DNA of 43,643 nt from Clostridiaceae bacterium (GCA_904501895.1 CAJGCX010000001.1:1-43643), one strand, 5' to 3'; shown: positions 60 through 14,684, numbered from the stretch's first letter. Numbers and translations: made by a program. Notes: generated from the sequence alone by a model not told the origin.

Positions 60-1538
60 TCAAAAATCTCTGCCATTGAATGCCTCCTGTATCTCACGAC
101 TTCGTTTTAAGTAGTTTGATTTTGCGTAATTGCCCATGCAATCGTAAAATGAGTCCTTGCCATACTTGTAAATTAGGAACGATAACAATTCCAAGGTTGT
201 ACATTCACAAGTGTTGATGCAATACTCAAACGCTGAATTCATTTGACCTTCCGTGTAAAAAACAGATGCCTTTTTCAGTAGTTGCAACTGTTTATGTATG
301 TATCTCGGTCTCATGATTTTCAACTGTGCAATAAACTCTATGGCAAGTGGGTTGTCCTTGTAAAACCGAAGCATATCCGTTTCGATTTTATGGTGCGGAA
401 TTCTGTCCTTTGGTAGTTTTATAGTTCTGCCAACCTCATTACAAAGGGCGTGTTTGCAAATCAAATCACTTGTAAGTGCAACAAAGAAAAGCAAAGTGTC
501 CTCTTGCAATTCAACACGAATTCTTTCACCATCATTCAGGTTTTCCTGTGGCATTTCATAACGATTATCACGGAATTCAACAAACCCTGCGTGCATTGTA
601 AGGACTTGAACAATGGGCTTTTCTTGGAATCGAACCTTAACAAGTGCCTTGTTGTCAATGGGGAATAACTCCTTTGGTGTACGCTTTGTGTAGTCGTTCA
701 CAATACTGTTACCCGTGGTATCAAGCCAATTAAGAGCATCGCAGTTGAGCCTGTCAATTCCGTAGTAAGTCCTACCGTCAAGAAAACCACGTTTGACCAC
801 ATTCACCGTGTTTTCAACTCTGCCTTTGGTGTTGGGGTCGTGTCCCTTACAAATGAACAACGAGTAGCCAACATCCTTGACAAACTCATCAAACTCCTTA
901 ACGAGAATGACATTGCCGTAGCTTTCAGCAACAACGAAAACCTTGTCTTGGTCATACATAATCACCTGTGGACGACCACCAAAATACTTGAAAGCATATT
1001 TGTGTGCCTCAATAGCGGTTTTTGCGGTGAACGGTTTCGTTGAAAAGTACACGAATTTCATTCGACTGTACGAAAGCACCATGCAGAAGAAATACACCTT
1101 GGTTTCCTTGCCATACATGTTTCGCATTCGGTACTCACCAAAATCAACCTGTGCCTCATACCCCGGTGGTTGGTCATCACGAATACAACGGATGCGTTTC
1201 GGTTGACTTAAACCCGCCTGAACTCTCAGGTTTTTCACATACCGGTTGAATGTGGAGTAGGTGGCATCAAAATCAGCGAATTCCTCACGTAACTGCGTCA
1301 TCAAATTGGTGTTGGTGATTGTGGGACAAGCCTTAATCAACTCAATGATGTACTGACGATAGTTGTCCAAATCATACACCGTGCCACGCATAGATTTGTA
1401 GAAATCTTCTTCCGATTTCCTCCACCAGTTCCGAACCACCGACGCAGGTATGTGCAACCGCCGACCCGTTTCAGCCATGGTCAACCCATCATCCTTACAC
1501 TCCTGTATCTGCCGATACTGTTCTGATGTAATCATCAT
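60..1538 (-). CDS. istA: IS21-family transposase IstA
   Basis: The 492-aa ORF has an N-terminal HTH (GLTMAETGRRLHIPASVVRNWW). Its DDE-type catalytic core shows the layout typical of IstA (QVDFGE..., VLSYSR, IMYDQDKVF, DPNTKGRVEN). Confidence 0.9.
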   Translation of the reverse strand: MMITSEQYRQIQECKDDGLTMAETGRRLHIPASVVRNWWRKSEEDFYKSMRGTVYDLDNYRQYIIELIKACPTITNTNLMTQLREEFADFDATYSTFNRYVKNLRVQAGLSQPKRIRCIRDDQPPGYEAQVDFGEYRMRNMYGKETKVYFFCMVLSYSRMKFVYFSTKPFTAKTAIEAHKYAFKYFGGRPQVIMYDQDKVFVVAESYGNVILVKEFDEFVKDVGYSLFICKGHDPNTKGRVENTVNVVKRGFLDGRTYYGIDRLNCDALNWLDTTGNSIVNDYTKRTPKELFPIDNKALVKVRFQEKPIVQVLTMHAGFVEFRDNRYEMPQENLNDGERIRVELQEDTLLFFVALTSDLICKHALCNEVGRTIKLPKDRIPHHKIETDMLRFYKDNPLAIEFIAQLKIMRPRYIHKQLQLLKKASVFYTEGQMNSAFEYCINTCECTTLELLSFLIYKYGKDSFYDCMGNYAKSNYLKRSREIQEAFNGRDF

Positions 1539-1722: not shown

Positions 1723-2616
1723 CTAAATTTCAGAAAATTCGATATTTGAATCTTTAAGGAATGCTGTAACGGCATCGAAATGTTCCATTATAGGTTCGGT
1801 AGTGATGAATTTTTTGATTGAATATCCAGCATCGGTTATACGTACACAACCAATGGGGAGAGATTTGTCAGGAAGTTTTGCAACGGAAGTACGCTTGTTA
1901 TCATAAGTTAAACGTATTTTATTAGGCATACACTCTCCTGTAAAGTCTATTTTGTAACCAGTATTAGGTTCATACTGGATTAGTCCTAACAATTGTAACT
2001 CATTCAAAGTGGTGAAGGTAAGCCCATAATCATTAAGATAATCGTGTTTACTAGGAAGAACCACATATGAAATAAAATCTTTATCGTCATTAAAATCACA
2101 TAAAAGTTCAAATTCAACTGCAAGGGAACACAAAATTTGAAATGCTTTTGCATATTTAGGAGTGACTTCAGATAATATTCTTATAACACTTGGTGATGTG
2201 CTGGAAGGTTCTTCAAACTCCCGTGCTAGAATTTTACCCCAAATTAACTGCATATTTTCATCAGATACAAATTTAGCAGAATCCATAAAGCGTTCAAGCC
2301 ATTCATCATCCACTTTTGATTGTGCAGAAAAATCGGTTCCATCTTTAGCATTTTCTTGTGCTATTTGTGCAATCTTTTGTTGATTCTTCATATGTTTATA
2401 TGTCTTTTTTGCATTTGCAATTGAAAGCATTTTCGCTTCAGGGGCAAGATTGCTGTTTTGAATTTCGGAAATATATGTTGTAATGGCTTCTTTCTTTAAG
2501 CCGAAAAAAGGAAAGATTGAACCAATAATCGTTGATAATTTATTAACGCTTTCCTTTGCTGCACCTTCTGCAGCAGCTTTTGCGATTTCAAGACCGTATT
2601 CTTCTGGGTTAACCAC
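1723..2616 (-). CDS. DUF2806-like protein (stand-alone hypothetical of the defence-island type)
   Basis: The central segment of this 297-aa ORF is DDEWLERFMDSAKFVSDENMQLIWGKILAREFEEPSSTSPSVIRILSEVTPKYAKAFQILCS. From memory this matches the DUF2806 signature (W..F...a..vsde.mq.lW.kiLa.E...p.s.s.r.l..L). The assignment is unverified. Confidence 0.55.
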   Translation of the reverse strand: MVNPEEYGLEIAKAAAEGAAKESVNKLSTIIGSIFPFFGLKKEAITTYISEIQNSNLAPEAKMLSIANAKKTYKHMKNQQKIAQIAQENAKDGTDFSAQSKVDDEWLERFMDSAKFVSDENMQLIWGKILAREFEEPSSTSPSVIRILSEVTPKYAKAFQILCSLAVEFELLCDFNDDKDFISYVVLPSKHDYLNDYGLTFTTLNELQLLGLIQYEPNTGYKIDFTGECMPNKIRLTYDNKRTSVAKLPDKSLPIGCVRITDAGYSIKKFITTEPIMEHFDAVTAFLKDSNIEFSEI

Positions 2617-2858
2617 ATTTTACACCTCATTTACATTTGTAATATAAAGTAGTTGTTTTGTTATTCGACACATTGTACCATGTTTTTTATAATATTACAA
2701 CAATGAGCAAATTTTACGCAATTATAAAAACAAATAATTAGGTATCAAACAGCATCTCTTACGATAATGGTGAGGTACTTTTTGTAGTTTGTTGTCACAA
2801 AATTAATAATAATTACGATTATAAAAGTAATGAAGATTAAAAGGGAGCGTGTTTATTT

Positions 2859-3338
2859 ATGACACCAGAGGTTGCAACAGTTATTGCTACTTTAGGAACG
2901 GAATTAACTACTTATGCTGTGAAAGGAACTGTTTCTGCAGTAAGTACAAAAGTTAAAAGCATTAAAGAAGAGAAGAATATTGAAAAACTCAAAAATAATT
3001 ATGATGAAATTATTAGTGAGTTGTTAGAAGAAAGAGAAAACATCATAAGAATTGCACAAAGCTATAGAACAGAACTTGAAAAAGTAGAAATTAGTGACGC
3101 AGATATAGAACACTTACATAACACAATTGAAAATGTGATAGGTGTAATAAGTGGTTACATTACTGAAGACCAAGCATATGCTATTGGTTCTTTAAAAGAT
3201 TTAATAAATGTTGATACCTTGAAAACTATGCAATTATTAGGATTTAATTATAAAGAAGCAATAGGAGTACCTCTTACAAAGATATGCGCAAAAGCGATTG
3301 AACGTCTTGGAGAGAAAAAACCTACTAAAAAGAGATAA
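2859..3338 (+). CDS. Hypothetical 159-aa protein, predicted coiled-coil/helical
   Basis: The ORF has RBS AAAGGGAG 8-9 nt upstream of the ATG. It is rich in heptad-like E/K/L/I and I recognise no catalytic motif. It is divergent from the DUF2806-like gene. Confidence 0.55.
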   Translation: MTPEVATVIATLGTELTTYAVKGTVSAVSTKVKSIKEEKNIEKLKNNYDEIISELLEERENIIRIAQSYRTELEKVEISDADIEHLHNTIENVIGVISGYITEDQAYAIGSLKDLINVDTLKTMQLLGFNYKEAIGVPLTKICAKAIERLGEKKPTKKR

Positions 3339-3375
3339 GCTTAATATAAGACTTGTAAACCTTGTTTTATAACTA

Positions 3376-3416
3376 AAAACAGCACCCACTATCCGTTAAG
3401 TAGTAGGTGCTGTTAA
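3376..3416. terminator. Bidirectional terminator between convergent genes
   Basis: Hairpin CAGCACCCACTA / TAGTAGGTGCTG (12 bp, one mismatch), flanked by an A-run on the left and T-rich sequence on the right. Confidence 0.6.
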
Positions 3417-3436
3417 TTAATCAACATGGTTTATAT

Positions 3437-4552
3437 TTATCCACAAACTAATTCCACTTCCTCAAGTGTTTTACTGTGAGTTTTGAAAATACGGTGGTAA
3501 TATGGGGAAATACAAAGTAAGTCTGACAATTCTTTTCTTTTCGATTCAGCTGTGAGAAACGGTTGCAACTGTGAACACATATCAAAAATTTCAAGGTCTA
3601 TTCTAATCATTAACATTTCGTTTTGGTGAATGATGCCTGTGAAAACTTTTAATAATTCATCGACATTTTCGCTGGGGACAAAATCAATTGGTAATTTCTT
3701 GCTTTTTGTAAGCCTTTCTTGTTGTTCATATAAGGTCTTGAGAGCTTTCAATAGAACATCAACACTTTCTCTTCTATCGTTATTTTTATGGGATTCGATT
3801 TTGATTGCTCTAGATAAACGTAAGCAAAGTGCTTTGGCTTCGGCTTTAGCATTTTCCTCGATAATTTGTTTGTATTCGTCCTTAGAGCCTTTGAGAACTT
3901 CTTTACCAACGGCATCAAGAATTTTATCCATTTTTTCAATTAAGACATTCATATGGCTTATTGAGTCCTGTACCTGTTCAATTTCTTTTTGTTCCTTCAT
4001 AGAAGAAAGATAGGTTTTAAACATGTCAGACCACTGTTTGCTGAGGAAATCTTTAATGTCAGAAGATTTGTTGAATTCAGTTACAGATATTTGCTTAATA
4101 TTATAAATTTCTTTAATGAAACGGAATACGTTTATGTTTTTAGTTGCTTTGAATTGAATATTACATGCTCCAGAATCAATGTCTTTTGAGTTTAAATCAT
4201 AAATACCATATTCAGCATAGACATTTCTGTCGATAAATACGTAGAAAGGTACGCCGTTTTCTACGCCTTTTTGAAATTCTCTTCGGGTTACTGAAATGAA
4301 TTCTTCAAAATCACTTGGCTTTTCACCTGAAGCGGGACTGCCGTAACTACCACCAACAATAAGTAAGGCCATATCAGCACTTTCTATTGCTTTATAACAT
4401 GAATCATCTAATGTTGTAAATGGAGTGTATCCAATATCACCATCTTCAAATAAAATGGGTTCAAAATCATGAGCTTTGATGAAATTGGACAAATCCTCGC
4501 GTATGTATTTTAAGTCGTAGAAAGTTGAACTAACAAAAATTCTGGGTTTCAT
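3437..4552 (-). CDS. DUF4062 (TIR-like fold) domain protein with a helical C-terminal half
   Basis: The N-terminus MKPRIFVSSTFYDLKYIREDLSNFIKAHDFEPILFEDGDIGY...ADMALLIVGGSYGS matches the DUF4062 pattern (FiSStf.DL..eR..., G.rYGs). I chose Met21 of the track ORF (3437..4612) as the start because GGAGAGG lies 8 nt upstream of it. Confidence 0.65.
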   Translation of the reverse strand: MKPRIFVSSTFYDLKYIREDLSNFIKAHDFEPILFEDGDIGYTPFTTLDDSCYKAIESADMALLIVGGSYGSPASGEKPSDFEEFISVTRREFQKGVENGVPFYVFIDRNVYAEYGIYDLNSKDIDSGACNIQFKATKNINVFRFIKEIYNIKQISVTEFNKSSDIKDFLSKQWSDMFKTYLSSMKEQKEIEQVQDSISHMNVLIEKMDKILDAVGKEVLKGSKDEYKQIIEENAKAEAKALCLRLSRAIKIESHKNNDRRESVDVLLKALKTLYEQQERLTKSKKLPIDFVPSENVDELLKVFTGIIHQNEMLMIRIDLEIFDMCSQLQPFLTAESKRKELSDLLCISPYYHRIFKTHSKTLEEVELVCG

Positions 4553-4765
4553 AAAAATTTCCTCTCCTTTTAAGTCATATTCCTTACAAGTGAAATAAGT
4601 TTCCCTCCACATATACGTAATCGTATAAAATTGACTTTTTGTGACAAAAAATACAGAATTAATGTTATAAATTGGTAATATGGAAAGATAAGACTGGAAA
4701 AGTGTTGATGCATACAGAAAGAATAAATAATAGATGTTGGTTTTTGCTTAAATCTTTAATAAAGG

Positions 4766-4879: not shown

Positions 4880-5956
4880 ATGGTAAGATTAGCAACGGTT
4901 TTTAGTGGTATTGGTGCACCTGAACAGGCACTCAAACAGTTGAAAGAAGATGTTGAAATTGTTTTTGCTTGTGATAACGGTGAACGTGAGTTAGAACTCT
5001 CATATGAAGAGATAATGGAACAAACAAAGATGTTCACAGATGAAGAGAGAGTTTCATTTGTGAATGATTTGTATAAAAAAACAAATAAAGAAAATAGTGT
5101 GAAAAAATCATATTTTGCGAACTATGATATAAGTGAAGAACAGTGGTATGAGGATATTAGATTTATAGACGGCAAAAAGTATTTTGGAAAAGTGGATGTG
5201 TTAGTCGGCGGAAGCCCATGTCAAAGTTTTTCGACTTATGGCAAGAAAAAAGGTTTTGAAGATACACGAGGCACATTGTTTTTCCATTACGCGAATCTCA
5301 TAAAAGAGATGAGACCTAAGGTTTTTATTTATGAAAATGTAATCGGTCTTAAAACACATGATAAAGGTAATACATGGAAAAGAATTACAGAGATATTCAA
5401 AGAGTTAGATTATGATGTGTATGACGCAGTATTGAATGCTTGTGATTATGGCCTGCCACAAATAAGACAGAGAGTTTTTGTGGTTGGATTCGATAAAAAT
5501 TTAAAAATAAAAGATTTTAGTTTTCCAAAGGAACAAAAGCTTAAGAAAAAAGCATCCGAATATCTTTCACCAAAAGTAGATTTAAAGTACTATTTAGGAA
5601 AAAAAGGCTTTGAGTGGGTAACAATGAAAGAAAAACATCAAGGTCGCTCAAGGGTTAATAGAGATGTTATTTGTTGTCAAACAGCAAATCAACAATTTAA
5701 TTGGACTGGCGATTTTAGACTTGAAGCTCCAACAGATGAGATGAGAAAAGATTCTCGAATACATATAGGAATATATGAAGGCGAAGAGCGTGTTGCTAGA
5801 AAGATGACTCCGCAGGAGTGTCTAAGATTAATGGGCTTCAAAAAGTTTAAAATAGTTGTCAATGACCAACAAGCTTATAGGCAAAGCGGTAATTCTATCG
5901 CAGTTCCGGTATTAAAAGCATTGTTTAAACAAATTTTTAAATATATTTCGTTTTAG
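4880..5956 (+). CDS. dcm: DNA (cytosine-5)-methyltransferase
   Basis: All canonical m5C MTase motifs are present: I FSGIGA, IV GGSPCQSFS, VI FIYENVIGL, VIII QIRQRVFVVG, IX MTPQECLRLMGF, X GNSIAVPV. Confidence 0.93.
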   Translation: MVRLATVFSGIGAPEQALKQLKEDVEIVFACDNGERELELSYEEIMEQTKMFTDEERVSFVNDLYKKTNKENSVKKSYFANYDISEEQWYEDIRFIDGKKYFGKVDVLVGGSPCQSFSTYGKKKGFEDTRGTLFFHYANLIKEMRPKVFIYENVIGLKTHDKGNTWKRITEIFKELDYDVYDAVLNACDYGLPQIRQRVFVVGFDKNLKIKDFSFPKEQKLKKKASEYLSPKVDLKYYLGKKGFEWVTMKEKHQGRSRVNRDVICCQTANQQFNWTGDFRLEAPTDEMRKDSRIHIGIYEGEERVARKMTPQECLRLMGFKKFKIVVNDQQAYRQSGNSIAVPVLKALFKQIFKYISF

Positions 5957-5959
5957 TTG

Positions 5960-5994
5960 AATGTAGTATGCGTTTTAGCATACTACATTTTTTA
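5960..5994 (+). terminator. Rho-independent terminator directly after dcm
   Basis: Perfect 12-bp stem AATGTAGTATGC / GCATACTACATT with a 6-nt loop, followed by TTTTT. Confidence 0.75.
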
Positions 5995-6052
5995 TATCTA
6001 ACACTACATTTTTCATATATTGTAAATATTTGAAGATTTTATCACAAATATA

Positions 6053-6081
6053 TTGACAAATATTGTGAACAGGTGTAGAAT
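6053..6081 (+). promoter_or_regulatory. Putative sigma-A promoter of the GHKL-ATPase operon
   Basis: TTGACA (6053-6058), a 17-nt spacer, then TAGAAT (6076-6081). It is embedded in an imperfect inverted repeat, TTGACAAATATT ... AATATTGTCAA. Confidence 0.5.
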
Positions 6082-6113
6082 ATTGTCAAATCAAACAAAA
6101 TGGAGTGAAAAAT

Positions 6114-6332
6114 ATGGAAACAAAACGTGAAAAATTTGTAAGATTAGCAGAAGCAAGAACTAATAAAATCATTGATATGATTAGATTGTTAGGTAATTGT
6201 GCAAATAAATCTAACTATGACTATACAGATGCTGATATACAAAAAATATTTTCAACAATTGAAAAAGAATTAAAAAATACTAAAACAAAGTTCACTGTAA
6301 GTGACACAGAGGAAGAAAAATTTAGATTATAA
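6114..6332 (+). CDS. Small (72-aa) helical protein, first gene of the candidate operon
   Basis: ATG at 6114 with GGAG 8 nt upstream; the track ORF starts at GTG 6105. The sequence is METKREKFVRLAEARTNKIIDMIRLLGNCANKSNYDYTDADIQKIF.... I see no obvious HTH. Confidence 0.55.
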   Translation: METKREKFVRLAEARTNKIIDMIRLLGNCANKSNYDYTDADIQKIFSTIEKELKNTKTKFTVSDTEEEKFRL

Positions 6333-6352
6333 TTTGTGATAGGAGAGATAAG

Positions 6353-8248
6353 ATGGATAAATATAATTGGAGATTTCCACGATTAGACAATGGTCCTGAA
6401 CAGGGAATAAATGATGGTGGCATTGCTACATTCAAAGGTTCAAAACTGTATACATATCTTGCAAGAGAAATATGCCAAAATTCGTTGGACGCAAAGGCTG
6501 AAGGTAAAAAGACAGTAGTTGTTGAGTTCAATAGCTTATCATTAAAGAAGGTGGATTATCCATCATTATCTGAGTTAGAAAATATTTTTAGTAATTGCCG
6601 TGATTATTGGAATAAGAGAATGGAGCCAAAGCTTGAACGGTTTTTAGCTGAGGCTGAAAAAGAAATTTCAAAAGATGAGATTAATCTTTTAGTCATTAGA
6701 GACTTTAACACTACTGGATTAAGCGGTGCAAAAGCAGGCAGAGGAGAAAAATCCAAGTGGAGAGCACTTACTCATTCAAATGGTGTCACAGAAAAAGCAA
6801 AGGGTAGTCAGGGCTCATACGGTATTGGTAAAAACGCTCCTTTTGCATGTTCATCATTGAGAACTGTTTTTTATAATTCATATGCTGAAGAAGATGGTGT
6901 AAAAGCATTTCAAGGTGTTGCTCGTTTAATTACACATATGCAAGACGGCGAAGAGACTATTGGCGTTGGATTTTATAATAATGTTGAAAGCAATTGTCCA
7001 ATTTTCAGCGACGATGAATGTGCCTTAAGAGACCTTTTAAACAGACAGGAATATGGAACAGATGTTGTAATTGCTGGATTTAAGCAAACAGAATCTTGGA
7101 AAGAAGATATTGAAAAAGCTGTTTTGAGTAATTTCTTTGTAACTATTGCAAGTGATACATTGGTTGTTAGAATTGATGGCATGGAAATTAATAGTAGCAA
7201 TCTCAAAGAGCGTATTAAGTATTATGCAGACAAGGAAGCTCAAAGCAACGAAAAAGAAAAAAACATCACCTCAATTCTTGAGTTTTATCACGCTATTAGT
7301 GAGTATGATTTCAAAGAAACTGGTGATATTATAGAAAAGGGCGACGCTATTCTGTACATAAAGAAAGATGATAATTTCAGCAAATCAATTGCAGAAATGC
7401 GTTCAATAGGTATGGTTGTAAGAACTCGCCATAATAATATTTTCACTCGTTATGCAGCTGTTGTCGTTGTACAATCTGGTGAGCTGAACGATTTGCTTAA
7501 AGAAATTGAGCCACCTGCACACGATAACTGGGACCCTGGTCTTATTGAAGATGACCCTGCGGCACAGGAGAAAGCAAGAAAATACAGAGCAAAATTAATT
7601 GCATGGGTAAATAAGACTATTGCAGAAAAGTGCCGTGGAGAAGAAACTGATGAAATAGATTTGGATAGTATGGGTGCCTACTTGGGCTTTGATGAAGAAG
7701 ACAAGAATTTAGGCGGGACAGAACCTGAGGAGGATATAACTCCAGATGGTGACACAAAAATGGACACTCCAATTGCAAAAAAATCAAATACTAAAAAGCT
7801 CAATGCTGTTGCAAAAAAAGTTAAAGGTCATAAGGATGAAGATTCTGACCCACATAATGAAGGTGGTGGCGGTTCCGCAGGAGGAAGTGCTGGAACTGAA
7901 GACCCAGAAGGTCCTGATGTAGTAACTGCGCCTGTTCCCGGAAATAAATCTGTAAATATACCTCGAATATTAAAACAAAGGGTTTCCAAAGCACCAGCTG
8001 AAGCACAATATAGAGCAGTTTTTATGTTAGAAGAGGATTGCCCAGTGTTAAATCTTGCATTAAAAGCTATTGGTGATGATGGTAATAAGGAACAGTTGAA
8101 AATTGTTGATTATAAAATTGAAAAAATAAAGACGACTGTAAATTCACAACATATATCCATCAAAGATATAAAGGCAAAAGAAACATATGAGGTGTTCTTG
8201 AGCTTGGAATATGCTGAAAGAATGCAGATAGAATTATTGTTGTATTAA
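6353..8248 (+). CDS. GHKL-superfamily (Bergerat-fold, MORC/paraMORC/Hsp90-like) ATPase
   Basis: N-box LAREICQNSLDA, G1 box VIRDFNTTGLSG and G2 box GSQGSYGIGKNAPF occur in the canonical order within the first ~170 aa. There is no HisKA/DHp domain. The C-terminal third holds an acidic/Gly-rich low-complexity linker (…HNEGGGGSAGGSAGTEDPEGPD…) followed by a ~100-aa beta-rich tail. Confidence 0.8.
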   Translation: MDKYNWRFPRLDNGPEQGINDGGIATFKGSKLYTYLAREICQNSLDAKAEGKKTVVVEFNSLSLKKVDYPSLSELENIFSNCRDYWNKRMEPKLERFLAEAEKEISKDEINLLVIRDFNTTGLSGAKAGRGEKSKWRALTHSNGVTEKAKGSQGSYGIGKNAPFACSSLRTVFYNSYAEEDGVKAFQGVARLITHMQDGEETIGVGFYNNVESNCPIFSDDECALRDLLNRQEYGTDVVIAGFKQTESWKEDIEKAVLSNFFVTIASDTLVVRIDGMEINSSNLKERIKYYADKEAQSNEKEKNITSILEFYHAISEYDFKETGDIIEKGDAILYIKKDDNFSKSIAEMRSIGMVVRTRHNNIFTRYAAVVVVQSGELNDLLKEIEPPAHDNWDPGLIEDDPAAQEKARKYRAKLIAWVNKTIAEKCRGEETDEIDLDSMGAYLGFDEEDKNLGGTEPEEDITPDGDTKMDTPIAKKSNTKKLNAVAKKVKGHKDEDSDPHNEGGGGSAGGSAGTEDPEGPDVVTAPVPGNKSVNIPRILKQRVSKAPAEAQYRAVFMLEEDCPVLNLALKAIGDDGNKEQLKIVDYKIEKIKTTVNSQHISIKDIKAKETYEVFLSLEYAERMQIELLLY

Positions 8249-8261
8249 GGGGATTGGTGTT

Positions 8262-9158
8262 ATGAAAAAATCAAATATAAATTATCCACACCCAGTTTTA
8301 AGTGCAGCTAATGAAGATTACTTAAACTGTACCTTTGACATTGCTTTTGATAGTGACCCTGTTATACAAGGTGAGTTAGCCATAATTGAACTTTCGTATA
8401 ATCTTGAATGTGATGGGTTATCTAAAATGATTACTAATGGGGATGCAAAGGTGGTTGTATACCTTGAAAGTGTTGAAGCAGAGTATAGAAAAATTTTTGT
8501 TTTTCAGCCTGATTCAACTTCCTTGATAGTGAAGGAAAATAAAAATCTTTTTGGAAAGAACTTACAACTTAGATGTTACATAACTGCAGCTAAAGATATC
8601 TCCCCATTTTCCTTGTTAGAGCACAATAAGGGCTTGTTTGGGCCGATTCCTTTCAATGTGAAACGTGGAGATGTACTTGCTATATCAGAAAATTTTTATA
8701 ATATTCCTCTTGAAAATTATGACCCATTATCAGACAGACCATCAATTTTTTCTGTGAGAAGACAAACAGACAATCCTAAAGAAGAGATAATGGTAGATTT
8801 TGTCAGCCACGATAAAATTACCATTTTCCTTAATGATGATATTTTCGAAAAATATGATGAATTGTACCACGCTTCTGAAATTAGAATGTTTTTAGCATCT
8901 TTGTTTGCTGCACCAGTTTTGGTTGATGTTTTATCATATATTAAACACGCTGACCAAGATATGTTGGATTCGGTTTTAGATAAAAAATGGTATCAGGTGT
9001 TAAAATCACGTCTTTCAGAACTTGATATAGATTTATCTAAAGCAGATTCTATGACAACGGTTGCTAATATGGTTATTCCACATATTTTTAAGCAGAATAT
9101 TGAGCAATTTAAAGTCGTGTTTAAAGATTCATTACCGATGTCAGGAGATGAAGAATAA
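8262..9158 (+). CDS. Hypothetical 298-aa protein (no recognised motif)
   Basis: The ORF starts 13 nt after the ATPase stop and has an RBS (GGGGATTGG). It overlaps the next gene by 1 nt (TAATG at 9156-9160). Codon usage looks coding-like. Confidence 0.65.
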   Translation: MKKSNINYPHPVLSAANEDYLNCTFDIAFDSDPVIQGELAIIELSYNLECDGLSKMITNGDAKVVVYLESVEAEYRKIFVFQPDSTSLIVKENKNLFGKNLQLRCYITAAKDISPFSLLEHNKGLFGPIPFNVKRGDVLAISENFYNIPLENYDPLSDRPSIFSVRRQTDNPKEEIMVDFVSHDKITIFLNDDIFEKYDELYHASEIRMFLASLFAAPVLVDVLSYIKHADQDMLDSVLDKKWYQVLKSRLSELDIDLSKADSMTTVANMVIPHIFKQNIEQFKVVFKDSLPMSGDEE

Positions 9159-9919
9159 TGAAAGTAAAATATTTTACAGAATCAGCTTATTTGGAATTAT
9201 TCGATTCAATATCAAATAATCAAAACTTCTATTGTGTAGATAAATGTGATTGGATTGCAAAAAAATTTAAAGATACAAAATATTGTAAAGAATCAAGAAT
9301 TGATATTTCTTTGCCGGTACTTGAAAAAGGAAAAGATAGTGACTACACCAATATAGTTATGGTGCACAGTGCTTTTAAAGATAGGATTACACCAAAGCAG
9401 GCGAGTAATCCATATCTATGGACTTATTTAAGTCATTGTGAATATTGGGATTATACTTTTAATAGATGGTCAAAAGGTGATATTTCAGTAGGTGCAATAA
9501 AGGAACGATTCTTTTGTGGCACTGAAGAAGGTAATAGAATAGGTTTATTGAGAAACTCGATAGCTCGTTTGTGGTGGTATGGTCACTTAACTTTCTGTGA
9601 AGATTCTCCACGTCCATATAAACTTACAAAATTAATGATGAGCAATTCGGACCTGTGTCAAAGCATTATGGAACGAAAGTTTTCTATGAATAAAGAAATC
9701 ACAATTGGTATCTTAAGTGCAATTCAGGAAATTAATGACGACCCGACTCAAAAAGACGTAGGAGCAGTGTCAAATGGCGACCACTATGAGTGGAGACCAC
9801 TGTGCAAATACATAAATCGTTATGGTGGAGTAGTATTACTTGACACACTGACACGTGATGATATTAAAGAATTATCATATGATTTTTTAATGAAATATAG
9901 AAAAAAATGGGGTATTTAA
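9158..9919 (+). CDS. Hypothetical 253-aa Trp-rich protein (possibly DUF6339-type; unverified)
   Basis: The ORF is translationally coupled on both sides. Conserved-looking strings are NPYLWTYLSHCEYWDYTFNRW and NSIARLWWYGHL. The family assignment is from memory only. Confidence 0.55.
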   Translation: MKVKYFTESAYLELFDSISNNQNFYCVDKCDWIAKKFKDTKYCKESRIDISLPVLEKGKDSDYTNIVMVHSAFKDRITPKQASNPYLWTYLSHCEYWDYTFNRWSKGDISVGAIKERFFCGTEEGNRIGLLRNSIARLWWYGHLTFCEDSPRPYKLTKLMMSNSDLCQSIMERKFSMNKEITIGILSAIQEINDDPTQKDVGAVSNGDHYEWRPLCKYINRYGGVVLLDTLTRDDIKELSYDFLMKYRKKWGI

Positions 9920-9920
9920 T

Positions 9921-10385
9921 ATGCCAAACACAAACTGGTCAAAACTTAATCATTTGCAATTAGGGAAATACGCAGAGTATTATGCTAAAATGGAGTTTGC
10001 ATCTTACGGGTTTGAAGTATACACTTCAGAAGTGGATGACCATGGTGTGGATTTTATTGTAAAATCACCTGATAAGAATGAATTTTGTGAGGTGCAAGTC
10101 AAGTCTGTGCGTAATTACGGCTATGTATTTATCGCAAAATCTAAAATGCCTGAACTTATAGACAATAGACTTGTATGCTACTTGCATTTTGTTGATGGTC
10201 AGTTGCCTGATGTTTTTGTAATTCCTGCAACAGCGTGGAAAACACCTAATGCAGTTTTGGTTGACAGAAAATATGATAAGCCCGGTCAAAAGAGTGCACC
10301 TGAATGGGGGATTAGCATTTCAAGAAAAAATTATTCATTGTTGGATGATTACAGAGCAGATGAGTATTTTCTAAAAAATAAATGA
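9921..10385 (+). CDS. Small PD-(D/E)XK-fold nuclease-like protein (DUF4365-like)
   Basis: The N-terminal helix GKYAEYYAKMEFASYGFEV is followed by DDHGVDFIV and then EVQVKS. This is the D...(D/E)-x-K arrangement of restriction-endonuclease-like folds. The ORF starts 1 nt after the upstream stop. Confidence 0.6.
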   Translation: MPNTNWSKLNHLQLGKYAEYYAKMEFASYGFEVYTSEVDDHGVDFIVKSPDKNEFCEVQVKSVRNYGYVFIAKSKMPELIDNRLVCYLHFVDGQLPDVFVIPATAWKTPNAVLVDRKYDKPGQKSAPEWGISISRKNYSLLDDYRADEYFLKNK

Positions 10386-10429
10386 AATTTGCAGGTAGTC
10401 AGTATAAGCTGTAAAAGAGAGGTTTATAA

Positions 10430-11470
10430 ATGAATTTATTAAATGTAACAGTTTTACATAAATTGTGGAAACAAGGAACTATAGTTAAAGTTGATAATGA
10501 AAATTTGTGGGTAAAGTTTAACAACAAACCTATAAACAGGAATACAGATACTATCATGTTCTCATACCCGTCTGCTTTTGTTACTGGCTTCTTGAAAATA
10601 GTTGATAACGATGAATTGCAACAAGAAATTATGGCAGATGCCATTAAAAAAGAAGAACTTAAAAAGAAACAAATGTCTCAACAAGTAGTTGTTGTACCAA
10701 AAAACAATCCTGTAAAAAAACAACCTAAAAAACATTATGAAAGAGAAAATATTGCATTTAAATGTAATTATTGTGATGGTGGTGCTTCTGCATCTCAGAT
10801 AGGATATGCAGGAGTGTGCAGCAAAGCTGTAATTAAATATAATATTACCGAAGCAAAACGCACATGGTGTTCAAGTGAGCAGTGTGAATGCAACAGGTTT
10901 TTAAACGGTGAGTTAACATACAATGATTTGTGTGAAATTCATGCATCTAATAAATTTTTATGTTATGAAAGCGGTATGTTTATAAATTGGAAAGCTTCTG
11001 CTGGAACTGATGTAAAGAATGGAAAAATGGACAGACCTCGCAAACTGAAAAAAGTTCAGAAAAATAGCTTATGTATTCTTACTACTGTGAAACCTGATGC
11101 TCTTGAAACAGAACGTATGATTTTTGGTGTTTTTCTTGTTGATGAATCCTATGAAGGAGATAATCAAGCTGAGGGATATGTAACAACAAAGTCCAAATAC
11201 AAATTGAAACTTACCCCTAAAGAGGCAAAAGAGATATTGTTTTGGAATTATCATAAAAACTCTAATGACCAAGGAACTGCGCGATGGAGTTCAGGTTTGT
11301 ACCGTTATATTAATGATGTTGTATCTGCTCAAATATTGCGCGATATAGCTACAATAAAGAAAAATAGCCACGATGAAGAATTGGCAAAAGAATTTTTTGA
11401 ATATTATTGCAAGGTTAATAATGTTGATATAGATTCATTACCACAAAACAATGGAGCGTTATTAATATAA
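10430..11470 (+). CDS. Hypothetical 346-aa protein with a small N-terminal beta domain, a basic linker and a Cys-rich central module
   Basis: The ORF has RBS AGAGAGG. The Cys cluster FKCNYCDGG...GVCS...WCSSEQCECN...LCEIH...FLCYE suggests metal binding. The C-terminal domain (ERMIFGVFLVDE...ARWSSGLYRYIND) is of unknown fold. Confidence 0.6.
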   Translation: MNLLNVTVLHKLWKQGTIVKVDNENLWVKFNNKPINRNTDTIMFSYPSAFVTGFLKIVDNDELQQEIMADAIKKEELKKKQMSQQVVVVPKNNPVKKQPKKHYERENIAFKCNYCDGGASASQIGYAGVCSKAVIKYNITEAKRTWCSSEQCECNRFLNGELTYNDLCEIHASNKFLCYESGMFINWKASAGTDVKNGKMDRPRKLKKVQKNSLCILTTVKPDALETERMIFGVFLVDESYEGDNQAEGYVTTKSKYKLKLTPKEAKEILFWNYHKNSNDQGTARWSSGLYRYINDVVSAQILRDIATIKKNSHDEELAKEFFEYYCKVNNVDIDSLPQNNGALLI

Positions 11471-11502
11471 ACATTGTATAGAATGTTGTATGAGGTTATC
11501 AA

Positions 11503-11916
11503 ATGATTAAAGAAGTAATTCATGACCCGATTTTGTTGGCGATGAAATCGGAAAAGGCTACAATTGAAGATTTGCAGGTGGCACAGGATTTGCTTGACAC
11601 TCTCACTGCCAATGCTGATGGTTGTGTTGGTATGGCTGCCAACATGATTGGTATACATAAGCGCATCATCTGTTTTGATAATGATGGTACATATATGACA
11701 ATGTTTAACCCTGAAATTATTAAGAAGTCAGACCCTTATGAAACTGAAGAAGGATGTCTTTCATTGCTTGGTGGTCCCCGTAAGTGTAAGCGTTATAAGA
11801 ACATAAAAGTGCAGTGGCAGACAGCTGAATTCCAAACCAGAATTAAAACCTTCACTGGTTGGACAGCGCAAATCATTCAGCACGAAATCGACCATTGTGA
11901 TGGTATCTTAATTTGA
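11503..11916 (+). CDS. def: Peptide deformylase, short (137-aa) variant
   Basis: Motif 2 EEGCLSL and motif 3 QHEIDHCDG are intact. Motif 1 is divergent: VGMAANMIG instead of GxGxAAxQ. Confidence 0.85.
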   Translation: MIKEVIHDPILLAMKSEKATIEDLQVAQDLLDTLTANADGCVGMAANMIGIHKRIICFDNDGTYMTMFNPEIIKKSDPYETEEGCLSLLGGPRKCKRYKNIKVQWQTAEFQTRIKTFTGWTAQIIQHEIDHCDGILI

Positions 11917-12398: not shown

Positions 12399-13361
12399 GT
12401 GATAAGGATAATGGATATTTTGAGAAAAATAAAAGAGTCTTACATTTATGAAATCTTCAAAGACCAGAGTGGTATAATTATTTTTGCAGCAACAGTATTT
12501 GGTTCTTTTCTTGTGTTGGCAACACAAATAAGCGAGTATTTTTATCATTTGGGTCGTTTTAGTGAATATAATATACCAATAATCTTTATAGAGACAGAGC
12601 GCCCTTCGATTTATCATATAGTGACTGTGTTTGCATATGTTATGTGCTTTGTTGGTGGTATGACAACATTGATTTGTGCTAGAATGACATGCAGAACGGG
12701 CCTGCGGGTAGCCGAATTGCAACATGATTTAGATAACAATAAAAAACAATATTGGAAAAGAAAAAGCACAAATATAGTTGTGGCGCTTTTATTGGGAGCA
12801 TGTGTTATCGTTATTAATGCTTTAATAATAATACTTGCTACACCAAAATCTATACCAACAATGGTAATATTAAGTTTGTTTCTGTTTCTTTATCAGTGGT
12901 TTTATAGCGGTCTTATTATAAAGAGTATTGAAAAAAACAGTATTGAAGATGATATTGATATTGAAGATGAAAAGAAAATGATAGAAAAATTAGATGAATT
13001 ACCAGAAGAAGAGTTGAAAGAACGAACAGAACAAATAAAATTGAACAGTAAAAGTTTTATGTTTTTGTTCAAAATACTACCATTAGTTATTATTGTAGTT
13101 TTTTTATCCTTTTATTGTCTTGGAAACTATAATTCTGGAAAAAAGAGTGCAACGAGCATTGAAAATCCATATCAAATCTTAACTGTAGACAACGAAAAAT
13201 ATGTTGTATTAAGTAAGATGAACGATAATTATATATTAGCTAAAAGCATGGTGAATGATGAAAATGTTTTGAAAATTCGAAGGAATGAACAAATAGTTGT
13301 TCCAATAGAAAACGAAAAATATGAAGTTCAAATTTATGAAAAAGTAGTTTTAGAAGATTGA
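12399..13361 (+). CDS. Hypothetical membrane protein (about 5 predicted TM segments, acidic coiled linker)
   Basis: The 320-aa ORF has long hydrophobic stretches (IIIFAATVFGSFLVLA, VTVFAYVMCFVGGMTTLI, VVALLLGACVIVINALIIILA, MVILSLFLFLYQWFY, LPLVIIVVFLSFYCL). The start is ambiguous between GTG 12399 and ATG 12411. Confidence 0.55.
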   Translation: MIRIMDILRKIKESYIYEIFKDQSGIIIFAATVFGSFLVLATQISEYFYHLGRFSEYNIPIIFIETERPSIYHIVTVFAYVMCFVGGMTTLICARMTCRTGLRVAELQHDLDNNKKQYWKRKSTNIVVALLLGACVIVINALIIILATPKSIPTMVILSLFLFLYQWFYSGLIIKSIEKNSIEDDIDIEDEKKMIEKLDELPEEELKERTEQIKLNSKSFMFLFKILPLVIIVVFLSFYCLGNYNSGKKSATSIENPYQILTVDNEKYVVLSKMNDNYILAKSMVNDENVLKIRRNEQIVVPIENEKYEVQIYEKVVLED

Positions 13362-13410: not shown

Positions 13411-13458
13411 AACACCTATGAGGTTAGATGAGTTTTCTAACTTCATAGGTGTTTTTTT
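13411..13458. terminator. Strong bidirectional terminator
   Basis: An 18-bp stem (AACACCTATGAGGTTAGA / TCTAACTTCATAGGTGTT, one G-U pair) is followed by a T7 run. It abuts the stop of the convergent regulator gene. Confidence 0.8.
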
Positions 13459-14542
13459 ATGAGAGCATAGCTATTATTTCTTTAAATTCTGCCATGTTTT
13501 TAAAGTCATCGGAGAATCCGTAATCATTCAGTATGCTATCTTTAAGATGCTTTGTTGCAACAAAATCTCTGTCATTGGTATACTTATCAAAAATGTACCC
13601 TTCAAATAAAGGAGAATGCATAGTGCTATATCTGTCTAGTGAATCAAATTTTATGGCAAGTTCTGCTGCTTTTTTTAGTTTAATTAGTGAGTTGTTGTAA
13701 TCGCCTTTGCGATAATAAAACAAAGAATTCACACCGTAACCAGAAAAAATCACAGCCTTCCACATAATACCATAGTTGCCATCATTGTAGATATAGTCTA
13801 GAGCCTTTATTATGTGTTCTTGTATTTCAATCTGATAGTCAACAGAAAAATAATCCGATTTGTAGTACCAACCTGACATCACATCAAAAAGTGCGTGTAT
13901 CAGAATTTCAAGTGTATGGTGCACTTCTTCTGCTGATTTGTTGAAATACTCATAAACAAAACAGTTAAACTCTCTGCCATCTCTTATAGAGGGTAGTTGC
14001 TTTATGACATTATCCACATCATCAAAGGTTACATCGCTACTTTTAAGTGATATCATTCGGAGAAGAAAAGAAATATAGTAGGTTTTAGCTTCAATGCGTA
14101 TTGCATCATTAGTACAGTTTTTCTGAATATTTTCATATATTGCTTTGACCTTTGAAACGTGCTCTGTAAATTCTTCATTATTGCTATTAAGAATTTTTCC
14201 GATATACCTTATCTGTACTCGAAAATCTGTGGGATATTTTTCTCTTAGTTTATCAAGAGTTTTCCATTTGCGGTCTACATCCCAGCGAAGACCGTCGTAT
14301 TCTTTCAGGAGAGCATCGAGTTCCTCTTCATCTTGAGCCTTGTTGATTCCCATAAGTTCATCAATACTAACTTTGAAAAAATCTGAAATAAGGGGAAGAA
14401 GAGTGATGTCGGGGTAACTTTCTCCACGTTCCCACTTGCTTATACTCTGAAAGGATACACCTAAAATTTGGGCGAGAGCCTCTTGTGTCAGGTCATTTGA
14501 CAACCTAAGACGCTTGATGTTTTCGCTAATATAAATAGTCAT
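13457..14542 (-). CDS. XRE-family HTH transcriptional regulator with a long helical (TPR-like) C-terminal domain
   Basis: HTH NIKRLRLSNDLTQEALAQILGVSFQSISKWERGESYPDITLL. I chose the start at MTIYISEN (Met19 of the track ORF 13457..14596). Confidence 0.8.
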   Translation of the reverse strand: MTIYISENIKRLRLSNDLTQEALAQILGVSFQSISKWERGESYPDITLLPLISDFFKVSIDELMGINKAQDEEELDALLKEYDGLRWDVDRKWKTLDKLREKYPTDFRVQIRYIGKILNSNNEEFTEHVSKVKAIYENIQKNCTNDAIRIEAKTYYISFLLRMISLKSSDVTFDDVDNVIKQLPSIRDGREFNCFVYEYFNKSAEEVHHTLEILIHALFDVMSGWYYKSDYFSVDYQIEIQEHIIKALDYIYNDGNYGIMWKAVIFSGYGVNSLFYYRKGDYNNSLIKLKKAAELAIKFDSLDRYSTMHSPLFEGYIFDKYTNDRDFVATKHLKDSILNDYGFSDDFKNMAEFKEIIAMLS

Positions 14543-14684
14543 TGTAATCACCTCGAAATTTAATGGTCTTGCAAGACTGATTATATAATAACTCAAAGGT
14601 AGGGAAAACTCAATAACGCTTTTGTTGAGAATTTTTCAACTAACGGTAGAGAAATTTAAGTTCCCATAATTTTGTGGGAGTTAA

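Follow-up and report, generated by a model that had tools for sequence, protein, structure and literature searches.

The closest described relatives of the locus reported here come from a catalogue of candidate defence systems, from comparative genomics of GHKL ATPases and from an anti-phage protein that has been characterized experimentally. The locus is a block of genes around a GHKL-type ATPase, next to dcm, a gene for a 5-methylcytosine (m5C) DNA methyltransferase, in a 43,643-nt stretch of DNA from a Clostridiaceae bacterium (GCA_904501895.1, CAJGCX010000001.1:1-43643), which was analysed at its full length and is called the window below. The PDC systems of PADLOC-DB v2 are 145 candidates collected through "guilt-by-embedding" in BREX, DISARM and type I restriction-modification (R-M) loci, and their authors call them untested (Payne et al., bioRxiv 10.1101/2024.01.29.577857). 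In its passages on the paraMORC2 group, the survey of Iyer, Abhiman and Aravind (2008, PMC2292703) describes GHKL ATPases with a strongly conserved ExxxH motif that occur in Gram-positive bacteria and cyanobacteria, are linked to Dcm, Vsr and superfamily II (SFII) helicases, and were predicted at that time to be R-M components.

Two further kinds of GHKL proteins are relevant to this comparison. VcSduA, a paraMORC3 protein assigned to Shedu type I-D, was shown to be an anti-phage GHKL protein whose ATPase glutamate is needed (PMC12137116). HEF_HK/Response_reg_2 pairs consist of a paraMORC-like GHKL protein and a partner, encoded downstream of a C5 methyltransferase (Bellieny-Rabelo et al., bioRxiv 10.1101/2020.08.26.268516).

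In this study, we report that positions 4880-9919 of the window hold a single copy of a five-gene cassette that is horizontally mobile and encodes the methyltransferase Dcm, a helical protein of 72 aa (small), the ATPase (A) and two further proteins (B and C). We are highly confident that the block is a cassette of the PDC-M33/paraMORC2 type, and the cassette is probably a defence system. That it acts as an R-M-like, m5C-gated system against phages or plasmids is a more tentative reading, to which we give close to an even chance.

Results and Discussion

The block matches the catalogued candidate PDC-M33

All three components of PDC-M33 were matched over their full length by the PADLOC search, in the same order and on the same strand. 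The match of A to PDC-M33A (E 2.1e-148) places residues 4-631 on positions 3-624 of the 627-position model; B, whose gene begins 13 nt downstream of A, matches PDC-M33B (E 2.8e-51), and C, whose start overlaps the stop codon of B, matches PDC-M33C (E 3.4e-53) as well as Pfam DUF6339 (E 8e-47). An earlier note, made from the window itself, had presented the block as an undescribed system that matches no named one, which these matches contradict; its broader proposal of a defence-type cassette around a GHKL-like ATPase is supported by the same matches and by the occurrence of related copies beside CBASS, R-M and abortive infection (Abi) genes. PDC-M33 is catalogued as a candidate of three genes, whereas the main subtype found here adds the m5C methyltransferase and the 72-aa protein, for which no PADLOC model gave a match at E<=0.01. 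The main text of the lactococcal defensome paper does not discuss PDC-M33.

The ATPase most likely belongs to paraMORC2, because its ExxxH motif, its phyletic spread and its Dcm and Vsr neighbourhoods agree with the published description. A carries N-terminal GHKL motifs and, downstream of them, ExxxH (E386/H390), and the cassette has a Gram-positive, cyanobacteria-related and archaeal spread, with neighbourhoods that contain Dcm, Vsr and SFII helicases. The agreement is with the description of the group in the text and not with the sequence of a named member, and the passages on paraMORC2 in the 2008 paper (PMC2292703) do not include B, C or 72-aa partners.

VcSduA resembles A in being a GHKL ATPase of the paraMORC radiation, and it acts in phage defence. 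It is, however, one polypeptide whose C-terminal part is a DUF4263 PD-(D/E)xK nuclease, whereas no nuclease domain is recognisable in M33A, which is accompanied by a methyltransferase and two or three further proteins. The HEF_HK/Response_reg_2 pairs share with the cassette the arrangement of a GHKL protein and a partner 3' of a C5 methyltransferase, but the partner proteins differ; membership in this group was rejected, since Pfam PF19191 and PF19192 gave no match to the window proteins. MzaABCDE is reportedly another Dcm-linked system. It was likewise dismissed as an assignment, no PADLOC Mza model having matched any window protein at E<=0.01.

The natural unit extends from dcm to C

Relatives of the locus were collected by a pattern scan, which found them in at least 314 of 185,579 species-level genomes; 80 loci were fetched, and their genes were counted by iterated hidden Markov model (HMM) searches of all open reading frames (ORFs). 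The ATPase family itself comprises at least 938 clusters when the protein collection is grouped at 90% identity; clustering at 50% leaves 5253 representatives (E<=1e-3). The hosts are mostly Bacillota, but include Melainabacteria, Muribaculaceae, Fusobacteria, Chlamydiales, Dehalococcoidales and one Methanimicrococcus archaeon.

The gene for A is present in all 80 loci, followed by B in 78 (missing at contig ends only) and by C in 72, the gaps being at contig ends and in one internal locus, where C was absent from greedy gene calling and was recovered by HMM search. The order and strand of A-B-C are fixed across the set. The small gene was found in 58 of the 80 loci, always directly upstream of A, and a member of the dcm family lies within 10 kb in 56. 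The genes for the 154-aa and 346-aa proteins that follow C in the window recur in a single locus (1/80 each), and all-against-all clustering of the 80 loci gave no other family present in more than nine of them. The claim that the six listed ORFs form one unit was thus revised by co-occurrence, which keeps small-A-B-C together with dcm and drops the last two genes. The same boundaries emerged from a relative with 75% identity (L001), whose DNA homology to the window spans exactly 4880-9920, from the start of dcm to the stop of C. Delimited by these comparisons, the natural unit is dcm, the 72-aa protein, A, B and C (Table 1).

Pairwise identities of B and C closely follow those of A (Mantel r 0.97 and 0.96), and those of dcm and small do so to a lesser degree (0.68 and 0.57), with p=0.001 in all tests and with host relatedness as a confounder. 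The mean pairwise identity is 0.40 for A, 0.34 for B, 0.40 for C, 0.36 for dcm and 0.61 for the 72-aa protein, which makes the latter by far the most conserved component.

Table 1. Features of the cassette and its surroundings; positions are those of the window
Feature	Position	Strand	Evidence or remark
dcm, m5C DNA methyltransferase	4880-5956	+	Pfam DNA_methylase (PF00145) E 1.4e-70; TIGR00675 E 2.7e-71
Hairpin, intrinsic-terminator-like, 3' of dcm	5959-5990	+	Pattern scan
Sigma-70-type promoter of small-A-B-C, TTGACA-17-TAGAAT (predicted)	6053-6081	+	11/12 consensus match
small, 72-aa ORF	6105/6114-6332	+	ATG 6114 most likely start
A, 631-aa GHKL-type ATPase, PDC-M33A	6353-8248	+	PADLOC
B, 298-aa PDC-M33B	8262-9158	+	PADLOC
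C, 253-aa PDC-M33C (DUF6339)	9158-9919	+	PADLOC, Pfam
nuc, 154-aa possible PD-(D/E)XK-like gene	9921-10385	+	Adjacent; judged outside conserved cassette
cys, 346-aa Cys-rich gene	10430-11470	+	Adjacent; judged outside conserved cassette
IS21-like transposase, rve domain	match 3-1558, ORF 60-1538	-	93% DNA-identical to L068 3523-5079
DUF2806/Abi_alpha-like gene	1723-2616	-	Upstream of dcm
159-aa coiled-coil-like ORF	2859-3338	+	Upstream of dcm
DUF4062-domain gene, 391 aa	3437-4612	-	Upstream of dcm
320-aa multi-pass membrane-like ORF	12399-13361	+	No family match; beyond def and yaiI-like gene
379-aa HTH_3 protein, long C-terminal domain	13457-14596	-	Beyond def and yaiI-like gene

Organization and candidate regulatory sites

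The layout of the region proved to be as previously described, with six same-strand ORFs separated by recomputed gaps of 20, 13, -1 (TAATG), 1 and 44 nt, behind a dcm gene that is followed by a terminator-like hairpin. The hairpin has 13 pairs by pattern scan, or perfect arms of 12 nt, with a loop of 6 nt and a T-run after the stem. The promoter proposed for the operon is the sole 11/12 match on both strands of 11 kb. Sites that resemble promoters show no enrichment overall (46 found vs 51 expected). This one is credible because it sits in the dcm-small spacer and because neither its -35 nor its -10 element varies among the corresponding spacers of eight relatives, whose ATPases are down to 59% identical; the version of this spacer promoter in one relative (L094) is a 12/12 match. 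A GGAG ribosome-binding site at 6101-6104, 9 nt upstream of ATG 6114, points to that codon as the most likely start of the small gene, giving 72 aa, and metagenome gene calls agree independently. Based on these signals, dcm is predicted to be its own transcription unit, and small-A-B-C a separately promoted operon.

About 45 nt upstream of the -35 element, the palindrome ATATTGCAATAT is conserved in the spacers of six relatives, which have differing helix-turn-helix (HTH) genes upstream of their dcm genes. The palindrome is degenerate in the window, at 6008-6030, and in its close relative L092 (ATATTGTAAATAT); the dcm of the window has no HTH gene upstream. The palindrome may be an operator of the kind bound by controller proteins. 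In this respect the cassette is similar to classical type II R-M systems with a controller, which it also resembles in having the methyltransferase on its own unit beside a separately promoted "restriction" operon, with HTH genes upstream of dcm in many relatives and a palindrome upstream of the operon promoter. Where such systems have a restriction endonuclease, the cassette has none that is recognisable, but encodes an ATPase and two proteins of unknown fold.

One ATPase and three proteins of unfamiliar type

Residue conservation was assessed across 85 homologues of A, with a threshold of at least 95%. Positions above it comprise E39/N43/D46 in motif I, D117/N119/T120/G122 in motif II, G154/G157/G159/K160 in motif III and G235/T236/D237 in motif IV, in the order and with the spacing of GHKL ATPases. 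Further conserved positions are R350/G353/M354, E386/H390/W393 and D436, and E386-P-P-x-H390 is invariant in the 85 sequences. Neither A nor B gave anything significant in Pfam or NCBIfam.

The 72-aa protein was found only in the dcm-linked subtype. It has no Pfam or NCBIfam match, and a single weak PHROG match of unassigned function. The AlphaFold2 model of B (mean predicted local distance difference test, pLDDT, 82.6) consists of two beta-sandwich domains and a helical bundle, for which Foldseek returned from PDB only generic fibronectin type III and immunoglobulin matches, all with E>1e-3; B is probably non-catalytic. The model of C is mostly alpha-helical (pLDDT 91, predicted template modelling score 0.89) and had no Foldseek match in PDB (best E 0.8) or in BFVD (best E 1.0). 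Profile searches of PDB with alignments of B and of C gave no meaningful match either. No restriction endonuclease family in PADLOC, Pfam or NCBIfam was matched by any gene of the cassette.

The small gene and dcm occur together

The translation of dcm shows the m5C methyltransferase motifs FSGIG, SPCQ, ENV, QxRxR and GNS. Wherever the small gene is present and the flanks are informative, dcm is almost always near, lying within 10 kb in 52 of the 53 loci. In 34 of these it immediately precedes small-A-B-C in the same orientation, in 9 it is divergent, in 5 it comes immediately after the other genes, and in the remaining 4 it lies elsewhere within the 10 kb. The copies on plasmids and phages obey the same rule, both the four with dcm, which have the small gene, and the two without dcm. 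The tie to the neighbouring methyltransferase, which the earlier note had drawn from adjacency in the window, is strengthened by these counts, and we judge Dcm to be the modification component of the cassette.

Accessory genes are found on the dcm side. A family of about 137-150 aa was marked beside dcm in about 27 loci, and the two members that were scanned are both Vsr. Small HTH genes (HTH_3, HTH_17 or HTH_26) lie upstream of dcm in about 20 loci.

The subtype that lacks the small gene adjoins other methyltransferases, namely HsdM with MmeI, an N6_N4 methylase, or an Eco57I-type enzyme, and the A-B-C triad may thus pair with several methyltransferase classes. Four loci of this kind illustrate the variety: on Ligilactobacillus salivarius pMP1046A the triad has HsdS/HsdM on one side and an MmeI-type enzyme on the other, and no HsdR is listed; within this group it also lies beside DISARM-like SNF2 and Eco57I-type methylase genes, beside an Eco57I/TaqI_C methylase and a Ser/Thr kinase, or beside DndB and an N6_N4 methylase.

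A putative methylation-gated mechanism

If the cassette is an R-M-like system, Dcm would mark host DNA at its own target sites, and a complex of small, A, B and C would load on DNA. ATP-driven dimerisation of the GHKL domain, with clamping or looping as in MutL and MORC proteins, would then act on DNA without the mark. B and C could serve as non-catalytic subunits that bind DNA or partners, and the 72-aa protein, because it is found only in the m5C branch, is a candidate for the link between the complex and either the m5C mark or Dcm itself. For the effector step, the candidates are A itself, through its invariant E386/H390/D436 cluster, a nuclease that is variable or supplied by the host, and clamping that needs no nuclease. 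The last option can be drawn more specifically: small-A-B-C would be a MORC-like, ATP-driven clamp that silences or blocks DNA without the Dcm mark and does not cut it, with two subunits of unseen fold reading the m5C state. We consider this specific version decidedly unlikely; if true, it would be a bacterial counterpart of the link between MORC proteins, methylation and silencing in eukaryotes, and a new class of non-degradative, methylation-gated immunity.

Several observations weigh against the R-M-like reading. Within the conserved core, the ATPase is the one enzyme seen and no nuclease can be recognised, and no effector is evident in B and C, which have no acidic or His residue at >=95% conservation; in view of this, and of folds that are not nuclease-like, B or C as a hidden nuclease was rejected. 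The description of A as a Bergerat-fold ATPase holds in part: its GHKL motifs are real and conserved, but the fold was reached by no profile or structure search and is assigned at the level of motifs. An hhalign comparison of the A profile with E. coli MutL aligned only the N-box (REICQNSLDA on KELVENSLDA, <1% probability), two of 20 A homologues scanned against Pfam at relaxed stringency matched HATPase_c_3 (PF13589; E 0.14, 12.6 bits vs a cut-off of 25), and profile searches of PDB with alignments of A or of its N-terminal domain returned no meaningful match. The link to dcm is weakened by loci that lack the small gene, as eight of the 12 informative ones have no dcm despite adequate flanks, and by about 12 loci in which a restriction enzyme (HpaII, LlaJI or Sau3AI) accompanies the neighbouring dcm as its partner, so that this dcm could belong to a separate R-M system. 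Finally, no mention of PDC-M33 or DUF6339 was found in the literature searched, and the novelty of the system shrinks to that of one catalogued but never experimentally tested or explained.

The R-M-like reading also has to be weighed against a guard function, in which small-A-B-C would sense the integrity of the methyltransferase or R-M system, as challenged by phage anti-restriction or by depletion of S-adenosylmethionine, and then arrest or kill the cell in a PARIS-like manner. Such a guard would suit the placement of the triad in or beside many R-M types (type I, MmeI, DISARM-like, LlaJI, HpaII and Sau3AI), the definition of PDCs by embedding in such systems and the lack of a conserved nuclease in the core. 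It is nevertheless unlikely, given that most dcm-linked loci (34 have dcm directly upstream on the same strand) contain a dcm, with or without Vsr and an HTH gene, but no recognisable restriction enzyme to be guarded, and that A, B and C have no evident toxin-like domain.

The two genes after C in the window are an insertion

The 154-aa and 346-aa genes could in principle supply the missing activity, as effectors of the window copy that occupy a variable fourth-gene slot after C, and the block would then be a six-gene operon. The 154-aa gene begins only 1 nt after the stop of C, and no terminator was found on the + strand downstream of B through position 14000, and hence none after C, nuc or cys. 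Other relatives have an unrelated, tightly coupled small gene after C. The same pair also follows C in a locus from Ca. Fimenecus sp. (L068), behind a very different M33 variant whose A is only 34% identical to that of the window.

The distribution of the pair argues against this arrangement. It is missing in 79 of the 80 loci, and in the closest relative (L092/L093, with A 91% identical) def comes directly after C. In L068, the pair moves together with def as part of a 2-kb block (window 9916-11916, L068 13759-15759) that is 90.5% DNA-identical despite the divergence of A, and homology starts 5 nt before the 154-aa start codon; this break is as expected where a variable cassette or island has been exchanged between conserved flanks. 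Many loci have no same-strand gene after C. We therefore discarded nuc and cys as core components, on the grounds of their 1/80 distribution and of their absence from the 91%-identity relative, and by the same comparison the two genes are a lineage-specific insertion between C and def, outside the cassette. A six-gene operon is improbable, and a variable fourth gene after C is a minor possibility, not a conserved effector. Possibly the two genes make up a separate small module, either mobile or defensive.

The 154-aa protein, proposed to be a nuclease, is possibly PD-(D/E)XK-like. It carries D44...E57-V-Q-V-K61, with a spacing that differs from the canonical ExK, and its matches are sub-threshold or weak: DUF4365 (E 0.0025, 18.3 bits vs a cut-off of 24.3), PADLOC PDC-M02A (E 2.6e-4) and phrog_5018 (E 2.9e-9), the last two over the N-terminal ~55 residues. 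The 346-aa protein had no significant match in PADLOC, Pfam or PHROG, and its match to NCBIfam VPA0510_fam is sub-threshold (E 0.0057, 17 bits vs a 95-bit cut-off); relatives of it were found only in L068 and, by a metagenome scan, on one 1.7-kb contig, where the context differs.

Other genes were seen in the same position. In seven close relatives, a gene of about 190 aa with a weak HNH match in PHROG (E 1e-5) is tightly coupled to the stop of C, and in two other loci this place is taken by an unrelated 144-aa gene (phrog_15103). The 154-aa protein showed no BLASTP similarity to the other fourth-slot proteins (f13 and f33).

Genomic setting

The cassette lies in a low-GC stretch of the window (0.31-0.32 vs 0.37-0.40 elsewhere), and the rest of the window is housekeeping chromosome with genes for RecJ, RelA/SpoT, MurJ and others. 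Related triads are found beside CBASS, between AlwI R-M and AbiGI/GII genes on conjugative plasmids of Lactococcus lactis, between HsdS/HsdM and MmeI on L. salivarius megaplasmids, and next to the integrase of a temperate phage of Clostridium innocuum.

The MutL protein of E. coli stimulates Vsr, which could suggest a role outside defence, namely that of a mobile module for maintaining methylation or for repair, whose MutL-like ATPase would aid Vsr in correcting T:G mismatches from deaminated 5-methylcytosine, or would organise methylated DNA. This role is very improbable, for although Dcm, Vsr and a MutL-like GHKL protein occur together in many loci, and a possible recruitment of such proteins to mismatch repair is mentioned in the paraMORC passages of Iyer et al. 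(PMC2292703), Vsr is absent from the window copy and its closest relatives, the triad is also associated with N6-adenine methyltransferases and with BREX/DISARM-like contexts, it is flanked by Abi and R-M genes on plasmids and adjoins a prophage integrase, and its patchy distribution across phyla and domains is typical of defence genes.

An IS21-like element is located about 3.3 kb upstream of dcm both in the window and in L068, and the intervening 3.3 kb are unrelated. Comparison of the two loci suggests a variable island bounded by the IS21-like element and the nuc-cys-def block. The three low-GC genes upstream of dcm (1723-4612) gave no convincing match to a PADLOC system, and may be other defence genes.

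Significance

Three points about the cassette are new here: the five-gene definition of a Dcm-linked subtype with a highly conserved 72-aa subunit, a core without a recognisable nuclease, in which B and C have no known fold, and the removal of the 154-aa and 346-aa genes from the unit. PDC-M33 is common, being found on dairy Lactococcus plasmids and Ligilactobacillus megaplasmids, in gut Clostridia, in a temperate phage and in archaea, and the cassette is worth an experiment because it is both abundant and mechanistically opaque. If unmethylated DNA is restricted, the cassette would represent an R-M-like system whose effector machinery is of a new kind, and this would give a function to paraMORC2, the bacterial kin of the eukaryotic MORC silencers.

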